Below are positions 3,613 to 58,361 of a stretch of DNA of 64,000 nt, in pieces. The DNA is from Patescibacteria group bacterium. GTDB taxonomy: Bacteria > Patescibacteriota > Patescibacteriia > UBA1558 > GWA2-36-10. The stretch covers positions 18,132 through 82,131 of the forward strand of contig JBAYIQ010000004.1 in assembly GCA_041665545.1 (NCBI GenBank), in the 5' to 3' direction. The first letter of the stretch is position 1; each line of letters starts with the position of its first letter. Below the pieces are notes generated by a model, which saw nothing but the letters and a program-made list of their open reading frames with translations, did not search any database and had not been told where the DNA came from. The translations under genes were made by a program, and so were the position numbers.

Positions 3613-3919
3613 GTTGGATTGACAAAAATGATTATTTATTTTAGAATTCAAATTGAGGTTAACCATTCCTTCAGGGGATATGGCAATCTCAAAATCGCTT
3701 TTCTTAACAAAGTCCCGCCCATAAAGCGGGGTTTTGTTTTTTATGTAAAATAAATAATCGTAAAAAATGTTATTAATCCAAGTGGATTTAGCAGAAAAAT
3801 TTGTTTTATTGTTAAAAATATAAAACATCGCTTTTCTTTACCTTGTTTATAGCCGTCTATAAAAACAATGACGGCTTACCATGCCGTCATATTATCACCC
3901 GTTATTTTATTGTCAAGAC

Positions 3920-4522
3920 CTAGCCCAAATATCTTCCCAAAAAACTACGCCGATGCAGCGGACACAAGCCGTGCTCTTTTATTAATCGTAAATGTTCCTT
4001 GGTGCCATAGCCCTTATGTTGATAAAAATTATAAGCTGGAAACTCTTTGTGCCAATCTGTCATTAATTTGTCGCGATATACTTTGGCAATAATTGAGGCG
4101 GCGGCAATTTCTTCATGTCTGCTTTCACCGTGCTGGAAAAATTCAAGCTTAGTGTCGGGCCAATATTTTTTGGCCGCGCCCACATAGTCAGCCACCATGT
4201 TTATTTCTCCATGATTGATGTTAATAATTTTTTTTAATAAATCATTAAGCGCTTCTTGCATGACCAAAATATTAGCCACTTGGATACCGCGTTGATCAAT
4301 AATTTGATTATCAATTATTTTGATGCTAAACAAAAAATTTTCAACTATCAATTCGCTCAAAGCTTCTCTTTTTTTCTGAGACAACAATTTGGAATCACGA
4401 ACTTGTTTTAAAATATTTTTTTGCTCCTCCGAGCCCATAGAAAAAACTGCCGCGCCCACAATTGGCCCAGCCACTGGTCCTCTACCCACTTCGTCAATGC
4501 CAATTTTATATTTACTGATCAT
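3920..4522 (-). CDS. rnhB: Ribonuclease HII
   Basis: N-terminal MISKYKIGIDEVGRGPVAGPIVGAAV is the classic RNase HII catalytic motif (GIDEVGRGP). Confidence 0.9.
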   Translation of the reverse strand: MISKYKIGIDEVGRGPVAGPIVGAAVFSMGSEEQKNILKQVRDSKLLSQKKREALSELIVENFLFSIKIIDNQIIDQRGIQVANILVMQEALNDLLKKIININHGEINMVADYVGAAKKYWPDTKLEFFQHGESRHEEIAAASIIAKVYRDKLMTDWHKEFPAYNFYQHKGYGTKEHLRLIKEHGLCPLHRRSFLGRYLG

Positions 4523-4555: not shown

Positions 4556-5779
4556 TTACTCTTTCATAGCTTCAGCTATTCGCTCAATAGCCAGTACAAA
4601 GGCCGCTGTTCGATAATCAATTCTTTTCTCTTTGGCTATATCAAAAACTTTTTGCCAAGCATCAATCATCTTGTCTTTAAGTTTGGTGCTTACTTCTTCT
4701 TCACTCCAATATTGATCAGCTTTGTTTTGCAACCACTCAAAGTATGAAACCGTCACACCACCCGCATTAGCCAAAACATCAGGTATTACCTCCACCCCTT
4801 TAGCAAAAAGTATTTCATCGGCTTCGGGTGTAGTTGGGCCATTGCCCATCTCCAAAATTACTTTGGCTTTGATACTTGGCGCGTTGTCGGCTGTAATTTG
4901 ATTTTCCAAGGCCGCTGGCACCAAAACATCAACTGGTAAGGCAAAAAATTCTTCCAAAGAAATTTCTTTAGTATCAGGTAAACCACTCAATGATTGTTTG
5001 TTTTCTTTGCGTGTCAAAATTTCATTGATGTTTAGTCCGCCTTCTTTATAGATAACATTTTTGGAATCAGCCACGGCTACTACTTTGTAGCCCCCATCAA
5101 ATAAAAACTTGGCCATGCCACCACCGACATTGCCTAGACCTTGGATAGCCACGGACATGTTTTTTGGATTCCAAGATCTTTTGGCCACCAAGTCAGACAA
5201 GACAAACATGCCACCTTTGGCCGTGGCTGGACCCCTTCCTTTTGAGCCACCCATATCTAGGGGCTTGCCAGTGACCACTCCTAACTGTTTTTCACCAACT
5301 AATTTTGAATATTCGTCAGCCATCCAAGCCATAGTTTGAGGATTGGTGTAGACATCTGGCGCTGGGATATCTTTGTCTGGTCCGATTAAGTCTTTGAAAG
5401 CCCCAACCCAAGCGCGAGAAATTTTTTCCAACTCATTGGCGGACAGCGTTTTGGTGTCTATTACCACCCCACCCTTGGCTCCGCCCATAGGTATGTCAAC
5501 CACCGCTGTTTTGATGCTCATCCAAAAAGCCAAGGCCTTGACCTCGGCAATGTCCACCTGCGGATGAAAGCGAATGCCTCCCTTGTATGGACCGCGAGCA
5601 TTGTTGTACTGCACGCGATAGCCCTCGTATATTTCCAAAGTATTGTCGTCTTTTTTTATTGCTAAATTAGCCGTGATTATTTTGTCAGGCACGCTTAATT
5701 TTTTCAATATTTCCGGACTCAATTTAATTATAGCAGCTGCTTTTGTCAGCTGTTGTAAAGCATTGTCAAATGGATTCAT
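4556..5779 (-). CDS. gdhA: NAD(P)-dependent glutamate dehydrogenase (Glu/Leu/Phe/Val dehydrogenase family)
   Basis: ORF track 4556..5938; the probable start is the internal Met MNPFDNALQQ. YKGGIRFHPQVDIAEVKALAFWMSIKTAVVDIPMGGAKGG is the GDH catalytic and dimerisation signature, with the Rossmann motif GLGNVGG. Confidence 0.85.
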   Translation of the reverse strand: MNPFDNALQQLTKAAAIIKLSPEILKKLSVPDKIITANLAIKKDDNTLEIYEGYRVQYNNARGPYKGGIRFHPQVDIAEVKALAFWMSIKTAVVDIPMGGAKGGVVIDTKTLSANELEKISRAWVGAFKDLIGPDKDIPAPDVYTNPQTMAWMADEYSKLVGEKQLGVVTGKPLDMGGSKGRGPATAKGGMFVLSDLVAKRSWNPKNMSVAIQGLGNVGGGMAKFLFDGGYKVVAVADSKNVIYKEGGLNINEILTRKENKQSLSGLPDTKEISLEEFFALPVDVLVPAALENQITADNAPSIKAKVILEMGNGPTTPEADEILFAKGVEVIPDVLANAGGVTVSYFEWLQNKADQYWSEEEVSTKLKDKMIDAWQKVFDIAKEKRIDYRTAAFVLAIERIAEAMKE

Positions 5780-8468: not shown

Positions 8469-8651
8469 TTTATGTTACTTTAAGTACCTTAATATTTACT
8501 TGCAAACAGCCATAATAGCCCCAGCGTTTAGATTATCTATTATATAGATAGTTTAACCGCTGCGGCTATTCGATAGTCGCTTCTACTGGTGTGCCTTGTG
8601 TCTTTACATGGTGTAAAGATAAGAGGTGTACCGAAAAAAGGAGAGAAAACC

Positions 8652-9242
8652 ATGGCTCGTCAGAAGAGTGAGTTCGTGAGTGCCCTGGGCACGGCCTTCG
8701 AGATGATCAAGCTGATCGCCGAGGAGGTCTACTTCCTGGGTGGTAACGACAACAACATGCGGACGATCCTCAAGGATCGCAAGCTGCGTCAGCAGATCGC
8801 CAAGTTGTTGGTCGCCAACACCGGTGATGTCTGCGCGTTGGACATCTTCGGCAAGAGCATCGATGAGCTGGTAAGGCAGGGTAACTACGACTGGGCCAAC
8901 AACAGCATCAACGACCACAACTTCAAGGCGGACGAGATGCACCAGACCGAAGTCTTTCTCAAGCACTTCGGCCAGAACATGAGTATGGAGGCCGTGCTCA
9001 ATGCTCTGGATGCCGACGGCCTGCGTCCGGCGACCATGTCCGAGCTGCTCGGGTTCGGCATTCGCTATCCCGAACTGCAGCGGCAGTTCCCCATCGTGGC
9101 CCTCGGCTCTGTCTTGCAGTTTACCGGTGGTGGACGTCGTGCCGGTTGCCTCTACGGCAGTGCTGACGAGCGCAGGCTCGGTCTGAACTGGGTCGACGGT
9201 GACTTGAGCGGTGCCTATCGCGTCGCTGCTGTTCGCAAGTAA
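8652..9242 (+). CDS. High-GC hypothetical cytoplasmic protein (197 aa), unknown function
   Basis: ORF track 8589..9242; the start is set at MARQKSEF, directly after a strong Shine-Dalgarno. There is no TM segment and I recognise no motifs. The clearly elevated GC gives the codon usage of a high-GC organism. Confidence 0.5.
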   Translation: MARQKSEFVSALGTAFEMIKLIAEEVYFLGGNDNNMRTILKDRKLRQQIAKLLVANTGDVCALDIFGKSIDELVRQGNYDWANNSINDHNFKADEMHQTEVFLKHFGQNMSMEAVLNALDADGLRPATMSELLGFGIRYPELQRQFPIVALGSVLQFTGGGRRAGCLYGSADERRLGLNWVDGDLSGAYRVAAVRK

Positions 9243-9313
9243 CTGGCACTTGGCCACTTGTGTCCTCGGGACTTGATTGTCCCTTTGACACTTGGCCTCG
9301 GCCAAATCGCAAG

Positions 9314-9528: not shown

Positions 9529-9603
9529 TGGTCCCCTCACCAGGAATCGAACCTGGATCTAGAGCTTAGGAGTCTCTTGTTCTATCCATTGAACTATGAG
9601 AGG
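9529..9603 (-). tRNA. tRNA-Arg (anticodon CCU)
   Basis: A manual cloverleaf fits. The acceptor stem is CCTCTCA/TGAGGGG, followed by T8 A9. The D-stem is GTTC/GAAC. The anticodon loop CTCCTAA gives anticodon CCT. The T-arm is CCAGG-TTCGATT-CCTGG, and the discriminator A and CCA are encoded. The plus strand shows the diagnostic GGAATCGAACC. Confidence 0.8.
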
Positions 9604-15777: not shown

Positions 15778-16248
15778 CTACTTCTTGGGCTTGATCTTGG
15801 CCAGGCTGGCGGTCTTGAAGCGCCCGAAGGCGCGCTTGACCTGGCGCTTGTAGTCCAGGCCATAGTGGACGGCCAACCACTGTCCCTGAAGCGCGAGCAC
15901 TTCGGGGTCGAGATGGAATTTCTTCCAATCCCTGAGAAGGTGGGCGGTCATGGCCGGCTTGATCCGAGTCACGCGGCGTCGGTTCTTGCTAGCGTCAGGC
16001 TTGACGCGGGCCAGCCGTTTGCGCAGCTTGCCCTGCCTGGAATGCAAGCCGCGAACCTCTTGTCGCAGACGAGAGCGCTGGGCGGATTGACGTCTGTTGG
16101 CCAACTCCAGGCGCGAGATCCTGGCCTGAGACGCTGCCAAACCGGCGGCCAGGTCTTTGAGCGCTTTGTCCACACGGCGCTCGAAGCGGGTCTGTGCTGC
16201 TGCTGTTGAGCGACGCAACGCTGGTAAGGATTGTTTTCGACGGGTCAC
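15778..16248 (-). CDS. High-GC basic coiled-coil-like hypothetical protein (156 aa), GTG start
   Basis: A strong Shine-Dalgarno (AAGGAGGA) lies 7 nt upstream of the GTG, with its own terminator and its own TTGACA-17-TATAAA promoter. GC is about 60%. The protein is very basic (RRKQSLPALRRS...RRQSAQRSRLRQEVRGLHSRQGKLRKRLARVKP). Confidence 0.5.
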   Translation of the reverse strand: MTRRKQSLPALRRSTAAAQTRFERRVDKALKDLAAGLAASQARISRLELANRRQSAQRSRLRQEVRGLHSRQGKLRKRLARVKPDASKNRRRVTRIKPAMTAHLLRDWKKFHLDPEVLALQGQWLAVHYGLDYKRQVKRAFGRFKTASLAKIKPKK

Positions 16249-39229: not shown

Positions 39230-39913
39230 TTATAGCCTGATACAGCCACCCCTGTCCAGCAGCATACCCTGATTGTTGTTGGGGATAAAGTCATTGATCA
39301 AGAAGACAGCGTCAACTGACCGACCCTGCCACGGCACCTTGTGTCCGGGCGCAAGATTTCGACAGCCACGGATGACTCGTCCTCTGTCTTCCCAAACCAG
39401 TACGAAGTCGCCAGCTGCGATGAAGATGATTTTCTCTTCGTGGGGACGAAGAGTAAACACCGGCCCTTGTATGTTTTGGAAGGTTTTGGTCTGAGAGCTG
39501 ATGTTTTTTACCACTACCTCTAGCCGCGCCCAGCCTTGCACGAGGAATTCATCAACGATAATTGGCTCGCCAGTGTACAGACCGACTACGTGGTTTTCTT
39601 CCCCGTGTAGCACCTGGTCATTTCCTACCCATGGAGCCGTCCAGATTTCGTAACGTATGTATTTTTGTGCTCTCGTTTCTACAGGGAAGTCCCTTCCGTA
39701 GGGGAGTGGGATCTTGGGTCCACCGTTGACTGACACAACGGCCCAGCCAATGTAGTGCCGTTGGAAGGTCAATGTGACGGTGGGTGGGTTATCGCCGTAG
39801 GGATGATCGAGAGCGCGACCCTGTTCGTCGCGGAACTCGGTGCCGAGGCCCAAGCAGCCACAAAGGGGCAACAGGGCCATCAGGCACAGGGAGATAAGCA
39901 CATAGCGACGCAT
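39230..39913 (-). CDS. High-GC lipoprotein, unknown function
   Basis: ORF track 39230..39925 (GTG); the ATG at 39913 (MRRYVLISLCLMALLPLCGC lipobox-like) is preceded by Shine-Dalgarno GTGAGGTG. GC is about 53%. It has its own exact TTGACA-17-TATAAT promoter. I recognise no domain. Confidence 0.5.
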   Translation of the reverse strand: MRRYVLISLCLMALLPLCGCLGLGTEFRDEQGRALDHPYGDNPPTVTLTFQRHYIGWAVVSVNGGPKIPLPYGRDFPVETRAQKYIRYEIWTAPWVGNDQVLHGEENHVVGLYTGEPIIVDEFLVQGWARLEVVVKNISSQTKTFQNIQGPVFTLRPHEEKIIFIAAGDFVLVWEDRGRVIRGCRNLAPGHKVPWQGRSVDAVFLINDFIPNNNQGMLLDRGGCIRL

Positions 39914-39976
39914 ATAGCACCTCACTTGTTGAATGTTCTTTTTTTAGGCCCAAAATAGGGCTTTTACTAACACTAT

Positions 39977-54728: not shown

Positions 54729-57611
54729 ATGCCTATCCCCCAATTAGAACCAACTTTTCAACATAAAAAAATAGACCAAAAGCCAAGTTTTTTTTCCAAA
54801 GGACTGGTCGGCTCTGGTCACAGACAATCCAAGGCCCCGAAGAAGGGATTTTTTGGAAGATGGTTTAAAAAATATTGGCTACATATTGTTGCCCTGATTT
54901 TGTTACTGGGCATTGCTTTTATTGCTCTGGTGGCCTGGTATTCCAAGGACTTGCCAGATGTCAACAAATTGATTGACCGTAGCTCACCTTTGAGCACCAA
55001 GATTTATGACAGCAAGGGCGAGACACTGCTTTATGAAGTGCATGGACCAGAGCAAAGAACTTTGGTGACTATTAGCGAGTTGCCCGACTATATCAAACAA
55101 GCCACCATTGCTATTGAAGATAAAGATTTTTATAACCATAGCGGAATTTCTATCAAGGGGATTATTCGCGGGCAGATTGTACCCCGCTTAAGCGGACAAA
55201 GAGCGCAGGGTGGCTCGACCTTGACTCAGCAATTTGTAAAAAATGCTATTTTGACTAATGAGCGTCGCGTGTCCAGAAAAATAAAAGAATGGGTTTTGTC
55301 TTATCGCATTGAACAAAAATTTACCAAAGATGAAATCCTACAAATGTATTTGAATGAAATTCCTTATGGCGGATCAGCTTATGGCATTGAGTCTGCGGCG
55401 CATTATTATTTTGACAAGTCAGCCAAAGATTTGACCCTAGGCGAAGCCGCAGTGTTGGCTGCTCTACCGCAGTCACCAACATATTTGTCGCCATTTGGCA
55501 ACAACAAAGATAAATTAATTACTCGTCAGCACACAGTTTTGAATTTGATGGTTGATCAAGGATATATTACTAAAGAAAAAGCCGAAGAAGCCAAACAGCA
55601 AGAATTAAAATTTAAAAAAAGAGCGGAGAATATGCGCGCCCCGCATTTTGTCACCTATGTCAAACAGCAGTTAGAGGAAGAATATGGTACTACCATGGTT
55701 GAACAAAGCGGTTGGAAAATAACCACTTCGCTAGATTGGGAAATGCAACAAGCTGCCGAACGAGCTGTGGCTGAAGTGGCGCCAAAGAATAAAGAAAAAT
55801 ACGACGCTGATAATGCCGCTCTAGTGGCTATTGATGTGGCTACTGGTGATATCAAGGCCATGGTGGGCTCCAAAGACTTTTTTGATGATACGATTGATGG
55901 ACAGGTCAATGTGGCCATAGCCGATAGACAGCCCGGTAGCTCCATCAAACCAATTGTCTATTTAACAGCTTTTATCAAGGGTTATAGACCTGACACTATT
56001 CTTTTTGACTTGGCTACCAAGTTTGGCATCAAGGCCGATGGCACACCCTACAAGCCACTGGACTACGACGGCAAAGAAAGAGGCCCAGTTTCTATTAGGC
56101 AGGCCTTAGCCGGCTCATTGAATATTCCAGCAGTTAAAGTACTGTATCTAGCTGGAGTAAAAAGTGTCACTGATTTGGCTACTCAACTCGGCTATACTAC
56201 CCTGACCAATCCAGATCGTTATGGCTTGTCACTAGTCTTGGGAGGAGCAGAAGTGAAATTATTGGAGCACGTCAATGCTTATGCGGCTATTGCCAGAGAA
56301 GGAGTAGCTCAAGATTATCGCTCGGTATTGAAGATAGAAGACTCTAAGGGTGAGATAGTCAAAGAAAATAAAGAAAACAAAGGACGCCGAGTAGTTGATA
56401 AAAAATATACTAGAATTTTGTCTGATGTTATGTCAGACAATTCAGCTCGCGCCTTTATTTTTGGGGAAGCAAACTTTTTAACCTTGCCAGATAGACCAGT
56501 GGCGGCCAAGACTGGTACTACCAATGATTACCATGATGCTTGGACAGTGGGCTTTACGCCTGATATTGCGGCTGGCGTCTGGGTGGGCAACAGTAATAAT
56601 CGAGCTATGAAGCCAGGGGCTGATGGTTCGATTGTGGCGGCGCCAATTTGGAACAAATTTATGCGCGAGGTGACAGCCAAAATGCCGGTCAAGGGTTTTG
56701 AAAAAGAAGTTTTGGAGCCCTGTGACAAAACTATGCTTTGCGGTCAGCTAGCCAAAGAACAAATTGTAAAAATTGATAAAGTCACTGGCAAACTAGCTAC
56801 GGCCTATACGCCCTATGACCAAATTGAAGAAAAAAAATATTTGGAAGTGCATGAAATTTTACAATATGTAAATATCAACGATCCGTTTGGTCCACCACTT
56901 GATAATCCTAGCAACGATCCACAGTATATGGCTTGGGAAGAGCCAATCAAAAAATGGGCCACCGATAATGGGTACAATACTGATCCCGTGCCAACAGAAT
57001 TTGATGATACTCATAAGCCAGAGAATCAGCCGAGCATCAGCATCCTGTCCCCCAGCGAAAACCAAACCATCAATTCCACTAGTGTTAATATTTCCGTGCA
57101 AGTTAGCGCTCCACTTGGCGTAACAAAAGTAGAATACTTTTTGGACAATGATAAAGTTGGCGAAAGCATTAGCGCGCCGTTTGGTTTGAATTACAGTATC
57201 AATCCATTTGTCAGCAATGGCTCGCATCGTTTGCGGGCAATTGCTTCAGATGATATTGGTGATTACAAAGAAGTTAGTATCAATATCAATATCCAACTTG
57301 ACCCGTCATTAAGACAATTTAATTTGCAATGGGTTGATCCGCAAAATAATGCCAACATCTCTGCTACCAGTCTACCCTACAATCTGCGAGTCAGTTTAGA
57401 CAAGCCACAAAATATAAAAAAAATAGATTTTTATTATAAAGATCAGAGTAATAATTCTCAGTGGTTTGCTTATATTGAAAATCCAAGCAATTCACCGAGC
57501 ACGCTCTGGGGCAAGGGCTTGTTGCCTGGCACTTACCGGCTTTATATGGTGGTTCAGGATCAGGGTAATAGTTTAATGACTACACCGGAAATAAGCGTCA
57601 ATATACAATAA
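54729..57611 (+). CDS. Class A penicillin-binding protein (glycosyltransferase GT51 + transpeptidase) with a about 300 aa C-terminal extension
   Basis: N-terminal TM. GT51 motifs (EDKDFYNHSGISIKGI, QGGSTLTQQFVKN, RKIKEWVLSYRIE). Transpeptidase motifs SSIKP and KTGTT. The C-terminal about 300 residues are Ser/Asn-rich and Ig-like. Confidence 0.85.
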   Translation: MPIPQLEPTFQHKKIDQKPSFFSKGLVGSGHRQSKAPKKGFFGRWFKKYWLHIVALILLLGIAFIALVAWYSKDLPDVNKLIDRSSPLSTKIYDSKGETLLYEVHGPEQRTLVTISELPDYIKQATIAIEDKDFYNHSGISIKGIIRGQIVPRLSGQRAQGGSTLTQQFVKNAILTNERRVSRKIKEWVLSYRIEQKFTKDEILQMYLNEIPYGGSAYGIESAAHYYFDKSAKDLTLGEAAVLAALPQSPTYLSPFGNNKDKLITRQHTVLNLMVDQGYITKEKAEEAKQQELKFKKRAENMRAPHFVTYVKQQLEEEYGTTMVEQSGWKITTSLDWEMQQAAERAVAEVAPKNKEKYDADNAALVAIDVATGDIKAMVGSKDFFDDTIDGQVNVAIADRQPGSSIKPIVYLTAFIKGYRPDTILFDLATKFGIKADGTPYKPLDYDGKERGPVSIRQALAGSLNIPAVKVLYLAGVKSVTDLATQLGYTTLTNPDRYGLSLVLGGAEVKLLEHVNAYAAIAREGVAQDYRSVLKIEDSKGEIVKENKENKGRRVVDKKYTRILSDVMSDNSARAFIFGEANFLTLPDRPVAAKTGTTNDYHDAWTVGFTPDIAAGVWVGNSNNRAMKPGADGSIVAAPIWNKFMREVTAKMPVKGFEKEVLEPCDKTMLCGQLAKEQIVKIDKVTGKLATAYTPYDQIEEKKYLEVHEILQYVNINDPFGPPLDNPSNDPQYMAWEEPIKKWATDNGYNTDPVPTEFDDTHKPENQPSISILSPSENQTINSTSVNISVQVSAPLGVTKVEYFLDNDKVGESISAPFGLNYSINPFVSNGSHRLRAIASDDIGDYKEVSININIQLDPSLRQFNLQWVDPQNNANISATSLPYNLRVSLDKPQNIKKIDFYYKDQSNNSQWFAYIENPSNSPSTLWGKGLLPGTYRLYMVVQDQGNSLMTTPEISVNIQ

Positions 57612-57646
57612 TAAAAAACCCGCGTAAAAAGCGGGTTTTTTGACAA
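57612..57646 (+). terminator. Rho-independent terminator after the PBP gene
   Basis: AAAAAACCCGCGTAAAAAGCGGGTTTTTTG. Confidence 0.8.
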
Positions 57647-57738
57647 ATTTAATTTATAGATTTAAGATACTTTCGGTGTCTTGACGACTGGTTCTAGCGT
57701 CTTGACCGTTTGACCACCCATAACGCGGGAGAATAGAC

Positions 57739-58235
57739 ATGTTGGATTTGACTCGGCCCCGCACTTCGGATGAGGTCTATGTTTCTGGCGCATTGACCAA
57801 TGCCAAGTTGAAAGGAGGAGTCGATCCCAGGGAGCTTTATAAGCTGATCGGCGATCTCTGTCGGCGTAAGGGTCTCAATCCCTACGTACCGCATTTGCAC
57901 ACCGATCCGGTCTTGCACAAGGACATTCATCCCACGTACGTCTACGAAATGGACCATCAGAAGGTGCTGGATGCCTGCCTGCTCATTGCCTATGTGGGCC
58001 AGGCCAGTGGTGTGTTGGTATGGAGATGGAGATGGCCAGAGCCAATTTCACCCCGATCATCGTGCTGTACGAGGCCGATGTTCCGGTCACCAACATCTCA
58101 CGCATGTATCGGGGAAATCGGGCTGTGAAGGCAGTGGTCCGCTTCATGGACATGGATGACGCTTTGGCTAAGCTGGAGCTGGCCATTGAAGTGGTGCTGG
58201 CAAGGTGGGTTCGGTCTCAACCGCTGATCTTCTAG
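57739..58235 (+). pseudogene. High-GC nucleoside 2-deoxyribosyltransferase-family gene, interrupted by a -1 frameshift
   Basis: Two overlapping ORFs in different frames (57739..58128 and 58020..58235) together reconstitute an NDT-like protein. The N-terminus is VYVSGALTN, the catalytic region is ...YVGQASGV(L)GMEMEMARANFTPIIVLYEAD (compare GLGMELGYA...VLLVIPDED), and the frames join at GGTGTGTTGGTATGGAGATGG. GC is about 55-60%. Confidence 0.55.
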
Positions 58236-58282
58236 CGTTTTCTCGAACAAGTTCTTAACCACAGGACACAGTCCTGACCACA

Positions 58283-58322
58283 AGGAGCTCGTCCGCACGG
58301 GCTCCTTTGATTTTGTTTAACA
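58283..58322 (+). terminator. Rho-independent terminator after the NDT-like cassette
   Basis: GGAGCTCGTCCGCACGGGCTCC hairpin followed by TTTGATTTTGTTT. Confidence 0.55.
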
Positions 58323-58361
58323 CTTGCCACATAGCCCAAAAAACACTATTATATCTTAGAT

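Follow-up and report, generated by a model that had tools for sequence, protein, structure and literature searches.

The whole stretch of DNA analysed here, a 64,000-nucleotide window of a Patescibacteria group bacterium (assembly GCA_041665545.1, contig JBAYIQ010000004.1, positions 18,132 to 82,131), carries between the genes for PBP1A and UvrB a GC-rich cassette with one gene, whose coding sequence is interrupted by a frameshift. The gene belongs to the nucleoside 2-deoxyribosyltransferase (NDT) superfamily, and we consider it very probably a recent, strain-specific pseudogene of an acquired, DNPH1/MilB-like member of that superfamily, inactivated by the loss of one G. An earlier reading made from the sequence alone (the sequence-only reading) had described an NDT-like gene broken by a single-base frameshift that was either a decaying acquired gene or a sequencing error; the identical allele was found in three assemblies, which strongly favours the decaying gene over the error. 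The case is one of ordinary biology, a dead member of a known superfamily in an uncharacterised branch, and its practical consequence for the window is that the annotation should mark the gene as a frameshifted pseudogene.

Position and identity of the lesion

No single frame runs through the whole domain in the window. The frame breaks at 58011/58012, and the switch is by -1, as had been proposed, the open reading frames (ORFs) at 57739-58128 and 58020-58235 lying in different frames (Table 1). A protein search of 5.8 billion clusters returned intact orthologues (P0001, P0002, P0003 and P0005; 162-164 aa, 61-86% identity), and DNA alignments with four intact loci at the same site give GG(C/T)GGTGTTGG where the window has GGT-GTGTTGG. 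In the same aligned DNA, AGTGG(C/T)GGTGTTGGTATGG in the four intact loci stands against AGTGGT-GTGTTGGTATGG in the window. Within 57990-58040 the deletion allele reads GGTGTGTTGG, where an undeleted allele would read GGTGGTGTTGG. The sequence-only reading had placed the loss within a TTGGGT run; every intact relative likewise has TTGGT, without a third G, and the lesion is therefore a G lost from GGT-GGT, just upstream of the string that had been quoted. Repair guided by the homologues reads …SGGVGME… (…QASGGVGMEMEMA…), whereas repair to TTGGGT reads …SGVLGME…; the latter was set aside, having returned no match in Pfam, NCBIfam, PADLOC or PHROGs at E<=10.

The original reading frame is lost in the loop preceding the catalytic helix. 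The 5' coding part includes Tyr14, a PHLHTDP motif and Asp72, and the 3' coding part encodes the catalytic-glutamate helix (GVGMEMEMA), beta4, the ISRMYRG motif, beta5 and the C-terminal helix. The product of the gene as it stands, which ends at the stop codon at 58126-58128, keeps beta1 to beta3 and is without the glutamate nucleophile, beta4, beta5 and the C-terminal helix.

Protein family, fold and predicted chemistry

Both motifs on which the NDT-family assignment had been based, VYVSGALTN and GVGMEMEMA...VLYEAD, are present. A search against the Pfam model PF05014 (Nuc_deoxyrib_tr; gathering threshold 28.8 bits), which had been suggested as a check, depended on the repair used: the protein repaired to TTGGGT gave no match, and the homologue-guided repair matched at E=0.0037 (17.8 bits), below the gathering score. 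The orthologue P0001 also scores below it (25.3 bits), while the more distant relatives P0006, P0007 and P0009 score above it (29.2, 34.4 and 29.6 bits, respectively), and the model matches 53 of the 53 aligned family members at E<=0.001, the best of them at 9e-9. In a profile search of the PDB the best match was Rcl/DNPH1 (E=7e-7); the NDT 7m5h matched at 1.4e-5, MilB and BlsM at about 1e-3 to 1e-2, the NDT 4hx9 at 0.006 and the Lactobacillus enzyme 1f8x weakly, at 0.05.

An AlphaFold model of P0001 (pLDDT 83.4, pTM 0.83) has the expected beta-alpha-beta core and the fold of the NDT superfamily, which is flavodoxin/Rossmann-like with a five-stranded parallel sheet, and the best PDB matches listed by Foldseek for this model are all MilB or DNPH1 (probability 1.0, TM-score 0.65-0.78 for the top matches). 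By profile and fold the earlier assignment thus stands at the level of the superfamily; within it, DNPH1/Rcl, MilB and BlsM are closer to the gene than is the Lactobacillus-type NDT.

Glu96, within GVGMEMEMA, is invariant in the family and aligns with the glutamate of GVGYELGRA in Rcl/DNPH1. The GxGxE glutamate nucleophile of the NDT superfamily, located where the helix following beta3 starts, is found in the family accordingly placed; the window DNA still contains its codon, though no longer in the frame set by the start codon. At the level of sequence alignment, invariant Asp72 falls on the Asp of Rcl 'IHEQD', and invariant Ser121, Arg122 and Gly126 fall on Rcl 'LSAMIRG', so that both the catalytic Asp and the Ser of the S-x3-RG motif of DNPH1/MilB-type enzymes have counterparts here. 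The hallmark of the subfamily is an invariant Y-[VI]-P-H-L-H-T-D-P motif. Given the phosphate-site motif S-x3-RG, transfer would be less likely than hydrolysis, and the intact protein would more likely have been a nucleotide N-glycosidase than a transferase. No characterised member of the PHLHTDP subfamily was found in the literature, and literature searches on DUF4346, on the cyanobacterial ThyA/DCD/NDT cluster described below and on NDT in Patescibacteria found nothing relevant.

Acquisition and inheritance of the cassette

The UvrB of the window is 100% identical to NCBI proteins named 'MAG: Patescibacteria group bacterium' and shares 63-70% identity with proteins of Nomurabacteria and Komeilibacteria, which makes the host a CPR bacterium. 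Closer relatives allowed the site to be compared. Sister lineages with UvrB 96-97% identical to that of the window (L004 and L089; L006/L007 belong to the same organism as L089) and a further one (L096) have the intact gene at the same site with the same synteny, and their cassettes share promoter, leader and terminator with that of the window. The PBP1A-uvrB spacer is empty in three others (L090, L091 and L093; UvrB identity 87%, 85% and 75%, respectively), where its 35-110 nt hold the PBP1A terminator and the uvrB promoter. From these empty spacers it follows that the unit is an insertion of ~680 bp (approximately 57642-58320), and its atypical composition together with its presence and absence at a conserved site identify it as a horizontally acquired cassette.

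The number of synonymous substitutions per synonymous site (dS) is 0.32-0.62 for the gene and 0.39-0.64 for PBP1A and uvrB in the same genome pairs; because gene and neighbours are similar in this respect, the cassette has been inherited with the flanking genes since the lineages split. The claim of an acquired gene holds in that an inserted, GC-rich, single-gene cassette is present, but this strain did not gain it recently: the acquisition predates its split from three sister lineages. The ratio of non-synonymous to synonymous substitution rates (dN/dS) is 0.26-0.27 for the gene and 0.03-0.04 for its neighbours, and this accessory gene, intact copies included, has been under weak constraint. 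The deletion, by comparison, is found in the window's strain only and is therefore derived and recent; that the downstream frame is open, that the regulatory signals are intact and that there is no second lesion likewise make the event recent.

The spacer is occupied in the window, L004, L089 and L096, and also in a distant host (L008; Logan SRR13959604 contig, 1-1582), in which the same cassette lies between PBP1A and, at the end of the contig, an apparent promoter and start of uvrB. The protein encoded there is 61% identical to that of the window, and leader and terminator are recognisable. The PBP1A C-terminus of L008 is 48% identical to that of the window, as compared with 55-79% for the relatives with empty sites (55% for L093). 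Its gene is partly ameliorated, with a GC content at third codon positions (GC3) of 0.39; the PBP1A fragment upstream of it, which is all the host coding sequence that the contig holds, has 0.21. The occupancy in L008 would mean that the cassette either was gained long ago and has since been lost several times or moves laterally into a preferred site.

Two database entries for the sister lineages call for comment. Contig CAZILH010000007.1 of GCA_964540095.1 (L004/L009) is titled 'uncultured Gammaproteobacteria bacterium'; its UvrB is 97% identical to that of the window, with the same gene order, and the label is probably wrong. In L089 a gene caller had placed a 205-aa antisense ORF (3860-4477, minus strand) over the intact 164-aa NDT-like gene on the plus strand; this ORF was rejected as a gene and is a gene-caller artefact typical of GC-rich inserts.

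Reality of the frameshift and alternative explanations

That the gene is intact in the organism, one G having been dropped in base-calling or assembly, could be suspected of a sequence that derives from a metagenome-assembled genome, in which the lesion is a single base within a short GGTGGTG repeat and the remainder of the gene and every signal look intact. However, the truncated 129-aa product itself was returned by the search of 5.8 billion protein clusters (P0004), among which no intact protein more than 90% identical to the allele was found, and the same frameshifted ORF is present on three contigs: the MEGAHIT-style ENA contig ERZ27249449 k141_380813 and contigs of the Logan assemblies SRR6484324 and SRR18595301, which are different SRA runs. 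The three show 0 mismatches to the window over a shared 5.2 kb, the ENA contig (113,935 bp) shows none over 12.3 kb, which makes it presumably the source of the window, and the lesion site is without a homopolymer. As the allele is base-identical in three assemblies, which represent two or more independently assembled sequencing runs, there is hardly any doubt that it is real, and we judge a sequencing or assembly artefact to be very unlikely. A functional product could in principle still arise from a real frameshift, through programmed -1 frameshifting, transcriptional slippage or two reassembling polypeptides (residues 1-91 plus tail, and the 71-aa fragment from ATG 58020): both frames are open across 57870-58128, this ATG coincides with Met95-Glu96 and is preceded, at a distance of 7 nt, by a weak GGTG, and promoter, Shine-Dalgarno sequence (SD) and terminator are intact. 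The sequence-only reading had considered programmed frameshifting unlikely for want of a slippery heptamer, and this was borne out, as the overlap 57870-58128 contains neither an in-frame X_XXY_YYZ heptamer nor a homopolymer of >=5. The four orthologues are moreover all single-frame here, so the shift is not a conserved feature, and the split would part the catalytic helix from beta3 within the five-stranded Rossmann-like core. Continued function by any of these routes is highly improbable.

A link to nucleotide-modifying defence pathways had also been hinted at, and NDT-like domains do act as effectors in some conflict systems. If the locus were an anti-phage defence or nucleotide-modification module with the frameshift as a phase-variation switch, its nature as an insertion site with patchy occupancy and the position of the lesion inside a short GGT-GGT repeat would fit. 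Against this, PADLOC and PHROGs gave no match at E<=10 to the one query submitted to them (the protein repaired to TTGGGT), no defence-island context was seen in the window or in the relatives (the neighbours being PBP1A, uvrB and truB), and the single gene stands between housekeeping genes with no partner. A search of 2.9 million viral contigs returned one weak relative with 38% identity (L095, IMGVR_UViG_3300033146_004228, 5001-5384). Phase-variation tracts of this kind, with two trinucleotide units from which a single base is lost, are not known, and one allele state only was seen in the strain. The hint at defence is not supported by these results, and the switch is scarcely credible, even less so than a surviving functional product. 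The deletion is best read as the inactivation of an accessory gene.

Several points nevertheless weigh against this reading, in whole or in part. The support for the lesion comes from assembled contigs, of which the ENA assembly may derive from either SRA run, so that independence is certain for no more than two read sets. The repaired protein lies below the gathering score of PF05014 (17.8 vs 28.8 bits), and the structural model was made for P0001, an orthologue with 82% identity, in place of the window's own sequence. Substrate and chemistry rest on homology, and would be transferred to a subfamily for which no characterised member was found. Downstream of the lesion dN/dS is 0.31 versus 0.18-0.21 in other pairs and is not significantly higher. 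Relaxed selection after the frameshift was considered and could not be demonstrated with so few sites; the ratio is no more than compatible with a recent event.

Relatives in other phyla

Of 80 genome loci in other phyla, Cyanobacteria and Anaerolineae for the most part, 65 have relatives of the gene within a conserved, same-strand cluster. These relatives are 40-47% identical, and the loci (L010-L088) cover Cyanobacteria, Anaerolineae and Clostridia. The cluster comprises a ThyA-like protein fused to a pterin-binding DUF4346 (~497 aa), a dCTP-deaminase-like (DCD-like) protein (~240 aa) and two NDT-like paralogues; in Anaerolineae it also contains a ~780-aa protein, an SDR, a canonical ThyA, a second ThyA-like protein and a further DCD. 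By its sequence, the ~780-aa protein looks like a class II ribonucleotide reductase. The cluster would support a role in pyrimidine-nucleotide metabolism, and by analogy its pairing of genes recalls that of the hydroxymethylase MilA with the N-glycosidase MilB. Close protein relatives in JGI metagenome contigs numbered 0 confirmed.

Many cyanobacterial members (P0016-P0020, P0026, P0029, P0055 and others) are named 'XRE family transcriptional regulator' by NCBI, whereas JGI names the same proteins nucleoside 2-deoxyribosyltransferase or 2'-deoxynucleoside 5'-phosphate N-hydrolase. The former name looks like a propagated misannotation.

Locus layout, signals and composition

The features of the locus are collected in Table 1. 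The cassette lies between the PBP1A terminator on its left and the uvrB promoter on its right and has its own SD, GGGAGA, 6 nt before the ATG, and its own terminator, a hairpin at 58282-58307 with the T-rich tail 3' of the hairpin; position, SD and terminator all agree with what had been described from the sequence alone. The PBP1A terminator hairpin was listed on the minus strand and is symmetric, with T-runs on either side, and in L004 and L089 an equivalent but different hairpin occupies its position. The cassette promoter is 97% identical to that of L004, 100% to that of L006 and 79% to that of the distant L008. The cassette terminator is kept in L004, L006, L089 and L096 and is altered on both stem arms in L008.

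Table 1. Coordinates of features between the PBP1A gene and uvrB, numbered from the first base of the window
Feature	Position	Strand	Description
Upstream PBP1A gene	54729-57611		960 aa; stop codon 57609-57611
PBP1A terminator hairpin	57613-57641	+	11-bp stem; left edge of insert
Cassette sigma-70-like promoter	57640-57668	+	TTGACA-17 nt-TAAGAT; 10/12 matches
5' leader of cassette	57669-57738	+	two GTCTTGAC boxes and SD
SD GGGAGA	57727-57732	+	6 nt upstream of ATG
ORF1 as it stands	57739-58128	+	129 aa: 91 native and 38 out-of-frame residues
5' coding part	57739-58011	+	codons 1-91, original frame; beta1-alpha1-beta2-alpha2-beta3
1-nt deletion site	58011-58012	+	one G gone from ancestral GGT-GGT (codons 91-92)
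3' coding part	58014-58235	+	codons 93-165 and stop, now in -1 frame, fully open
ORF2	58020-58235	+	71 aa from ATG; -1 frame relative to ORF1
Cassette intrinsic terminator	58282-58317	+	AAGGAGCTCG-TCCG-CACGGGCTCCTT, then T-rich tail; right edge of insert
uvrB promoter	58324-58352	+	TTGCCA-17 nt-TATTAT; host sequence, present at empty sites too
uvrB start	58362		downstream neighbour of cassette

In composition the locus has a GC content of 52-56% (200-nt windows) against a mean of 39.7% for the window (sd 5.3%, 500-nt windows). The broken gene itself has a GC content of 54-55%, so the excess reported by the sequence-only reading is real, although its value of 55-60% was too high. The codon profile, proposed as a further check, agrees with a foreign origin of the gene: its GC3 is 0.65-0.72 and that of PBP1A, uvrB and truB is 0.36-0.40, and the same contrast in GC3 between gene and flanks is found in L004 and L006. 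No further copy of the leader, tail or gene was found within the 64-kb window.

Other GC-rich islands were noticed in the window at 8589-9242 (plus strand), 15778-16248 (minus strand) and 39230-39925 (minus strand), one of them between dnaN and ruvA. These three have a GC content of 54-62% and a GC3 of 0.61-0.75, against ~0.40 for the host, and hold one ORF each with no Pfam match; it seems that foreign genes accumulate singly in the intergenic spacers of this genome. A tRNA gene (9532-9603, minus strand) adjoins the GC-rich island at 8589-9305; no other Rfam match in the window exceeded the gathering score.

The conserved 5' leader

The 70-nt leader contains two invariant GTCTTGAC boxes, 21 nt apart, at 57678-57685 and 57699-57706. 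It is 94% identical to that of L004, 84% to that of L006 and 74% to that of L008, and is far better conserved than synonymous sites, which are saturated against L008. A search of Rfam with the leader returned no family, its weak matches all being driven by the PBP1A terminator; the predicted RNA fold was no better than that of shuffled sequences (z = 0.37), and an alignment fold of four sequences only contained 0 compensatory pairs. A known riboswitch in 57669-57738 was therefore rejected, there being neither an Rfam family nor a stable or covarying fold. The leader pattern had 0 matches in JGI metagenome contigs. The simplest reading of the leader would be a protein-binding operator for a regulator, and with its two boxes it is a candidate regulatory element.

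Proposed history and significance

The observations can be arranged as follows. An ancestor of these Patescibacteria would have gained, by horizontal transfer, a ~680-bp cassette consisting of promoter, leader, SD, a gene of 165 codons and terminator. By analogy, the ancestral enzyme may have been a dimeric N-glycosidase that freed the base from a (deoxy)nucleoside 5'-monophosphate, with Glu96 of GVGME as the glutamate nucleophile, aided by Asp72 and Tyr14, and with Ser121 of ISRMYRG binding the 5'-phosphate. Deletion of one G from GGT-GGT would then have lost the frame just before the catalytic helix and brought a stop after 38 unrelated residues, and a product with three of the five beta-strands and no nucleophile would leave the gene inactive. 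Patescibacteria are generally without de novo nucleotide synthesis, and in such a cell a (d)NMP N-glycosidase could plausibly feed scavenged nucleotides to base salvage and sugar-phosphate catabolism.

The locus thus offers a clean, datable case of a foreign gene gained and then lost in a reduced Patescibacteria genome, and it draws attention to a clade of roughly 600 members of the NDT superfamily that is uncharacterised and whose ThyA-like/DCD-like neighbourhood suggests an unstudied pyrimidine-nucleotide pathway. A bolder proposal would make the insert a self-contained mobile cassette that lands in the same PBP1A-uvrB spacer of distant Patescibacteria and carries an uncharacterised PHLHTDP subfamily of N-glycosidases, the operon of Cyanobacteria and Anaerolineae being an undescribed pathway of pyrimidine-nucleotide modification or base release analogous to MilA/MilB. 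We hold this to be possible but doubtful. Worth recording as provisional side observations are the patchy filling of a single spacer in distantly related hosts, the conservation of the leader and the uncharacterised operon of other phyla.

Comparison with known systems

The nearest characterised protein by profile is DNPH1/Rcl, the 2'-deoxynucleoside 5'-phosphate N-hydrolase or 5-hydroxymethyl-dUMP N-hydrolase (PDB 2khz, 4fyh and 8qhq). The gene resembles it in giving its best PDB profile match (E=7e-7), in fold (TM-score 0.55-0.78), in size (~150-165 aa), in the arrangement '…D…(hydrophobic beta-strand)…xSxGVGxE…A', which puts Asp72 and Glu96 on the catalytic Asp and Glu of DNPH1, and in its 'ISRMYRG', which aligns with 'LSAMIRG', the phosphate-binding serine motif of DNPH1. 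Unlike DNPH1, to which identity is only ~22-24%, the gene family has the invariant Y-[VI]-P-H-L-H-T-D-P motif, and the gene is bacterial and, in the window, broken.

MilB and BlsM, the CMP and 5-hydroxymethyl-CMP N-glycosidases of mildiomycin and blasticidin S biosynthesis (PDB 4jem, 4ohr and 5vto), are comparable in fold. MilB is the top Foldseek match (E=8e-8, TM-score 0.69/0.71), with a weaker profile match (~1e-3 to 1e-2). MilB acts together with the thymidylate-synthase homologue MilA, and the relatives in Cyanobacteria and Anaerolineae adjoin ThyA-like and dCTP-deaminase-like genes in a similar manner. In contrast, identity to MilB and BlsM is ~21-22% and no antibiotic gene cluster is present; the clade of the window has no ThyA-like or DCD-like neighbour, the gene standing alone between PBP1A and uvrB. 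NDT sensu stricto, the Lactobacillus NDT/PTD that are the archetype of PF05014 (PDB 1f8x, 4hx9 and 7m5h), shares with the gene the superfamily, the Pfam model, the fold and a glutamate nucleophile at the same helix N-terminus, but its matches are weaker than those of DNPH1, and the S-x3-RG motif points to nucleotide and not nucleoside substrates.

As a pseudogene, the gene resembles other strain-specific pseudogenes of acquired genes in its foreign composition, in a dN/dS ~8-fold above that of its neighbours, and in having a single recent disabling indel with intact orthologues in sister lineages. It departs from the usual acquired pseudogene only in that the distant host L008 has this cassette in the corresponding spacer, while the sites of intermediate relatives are empty.

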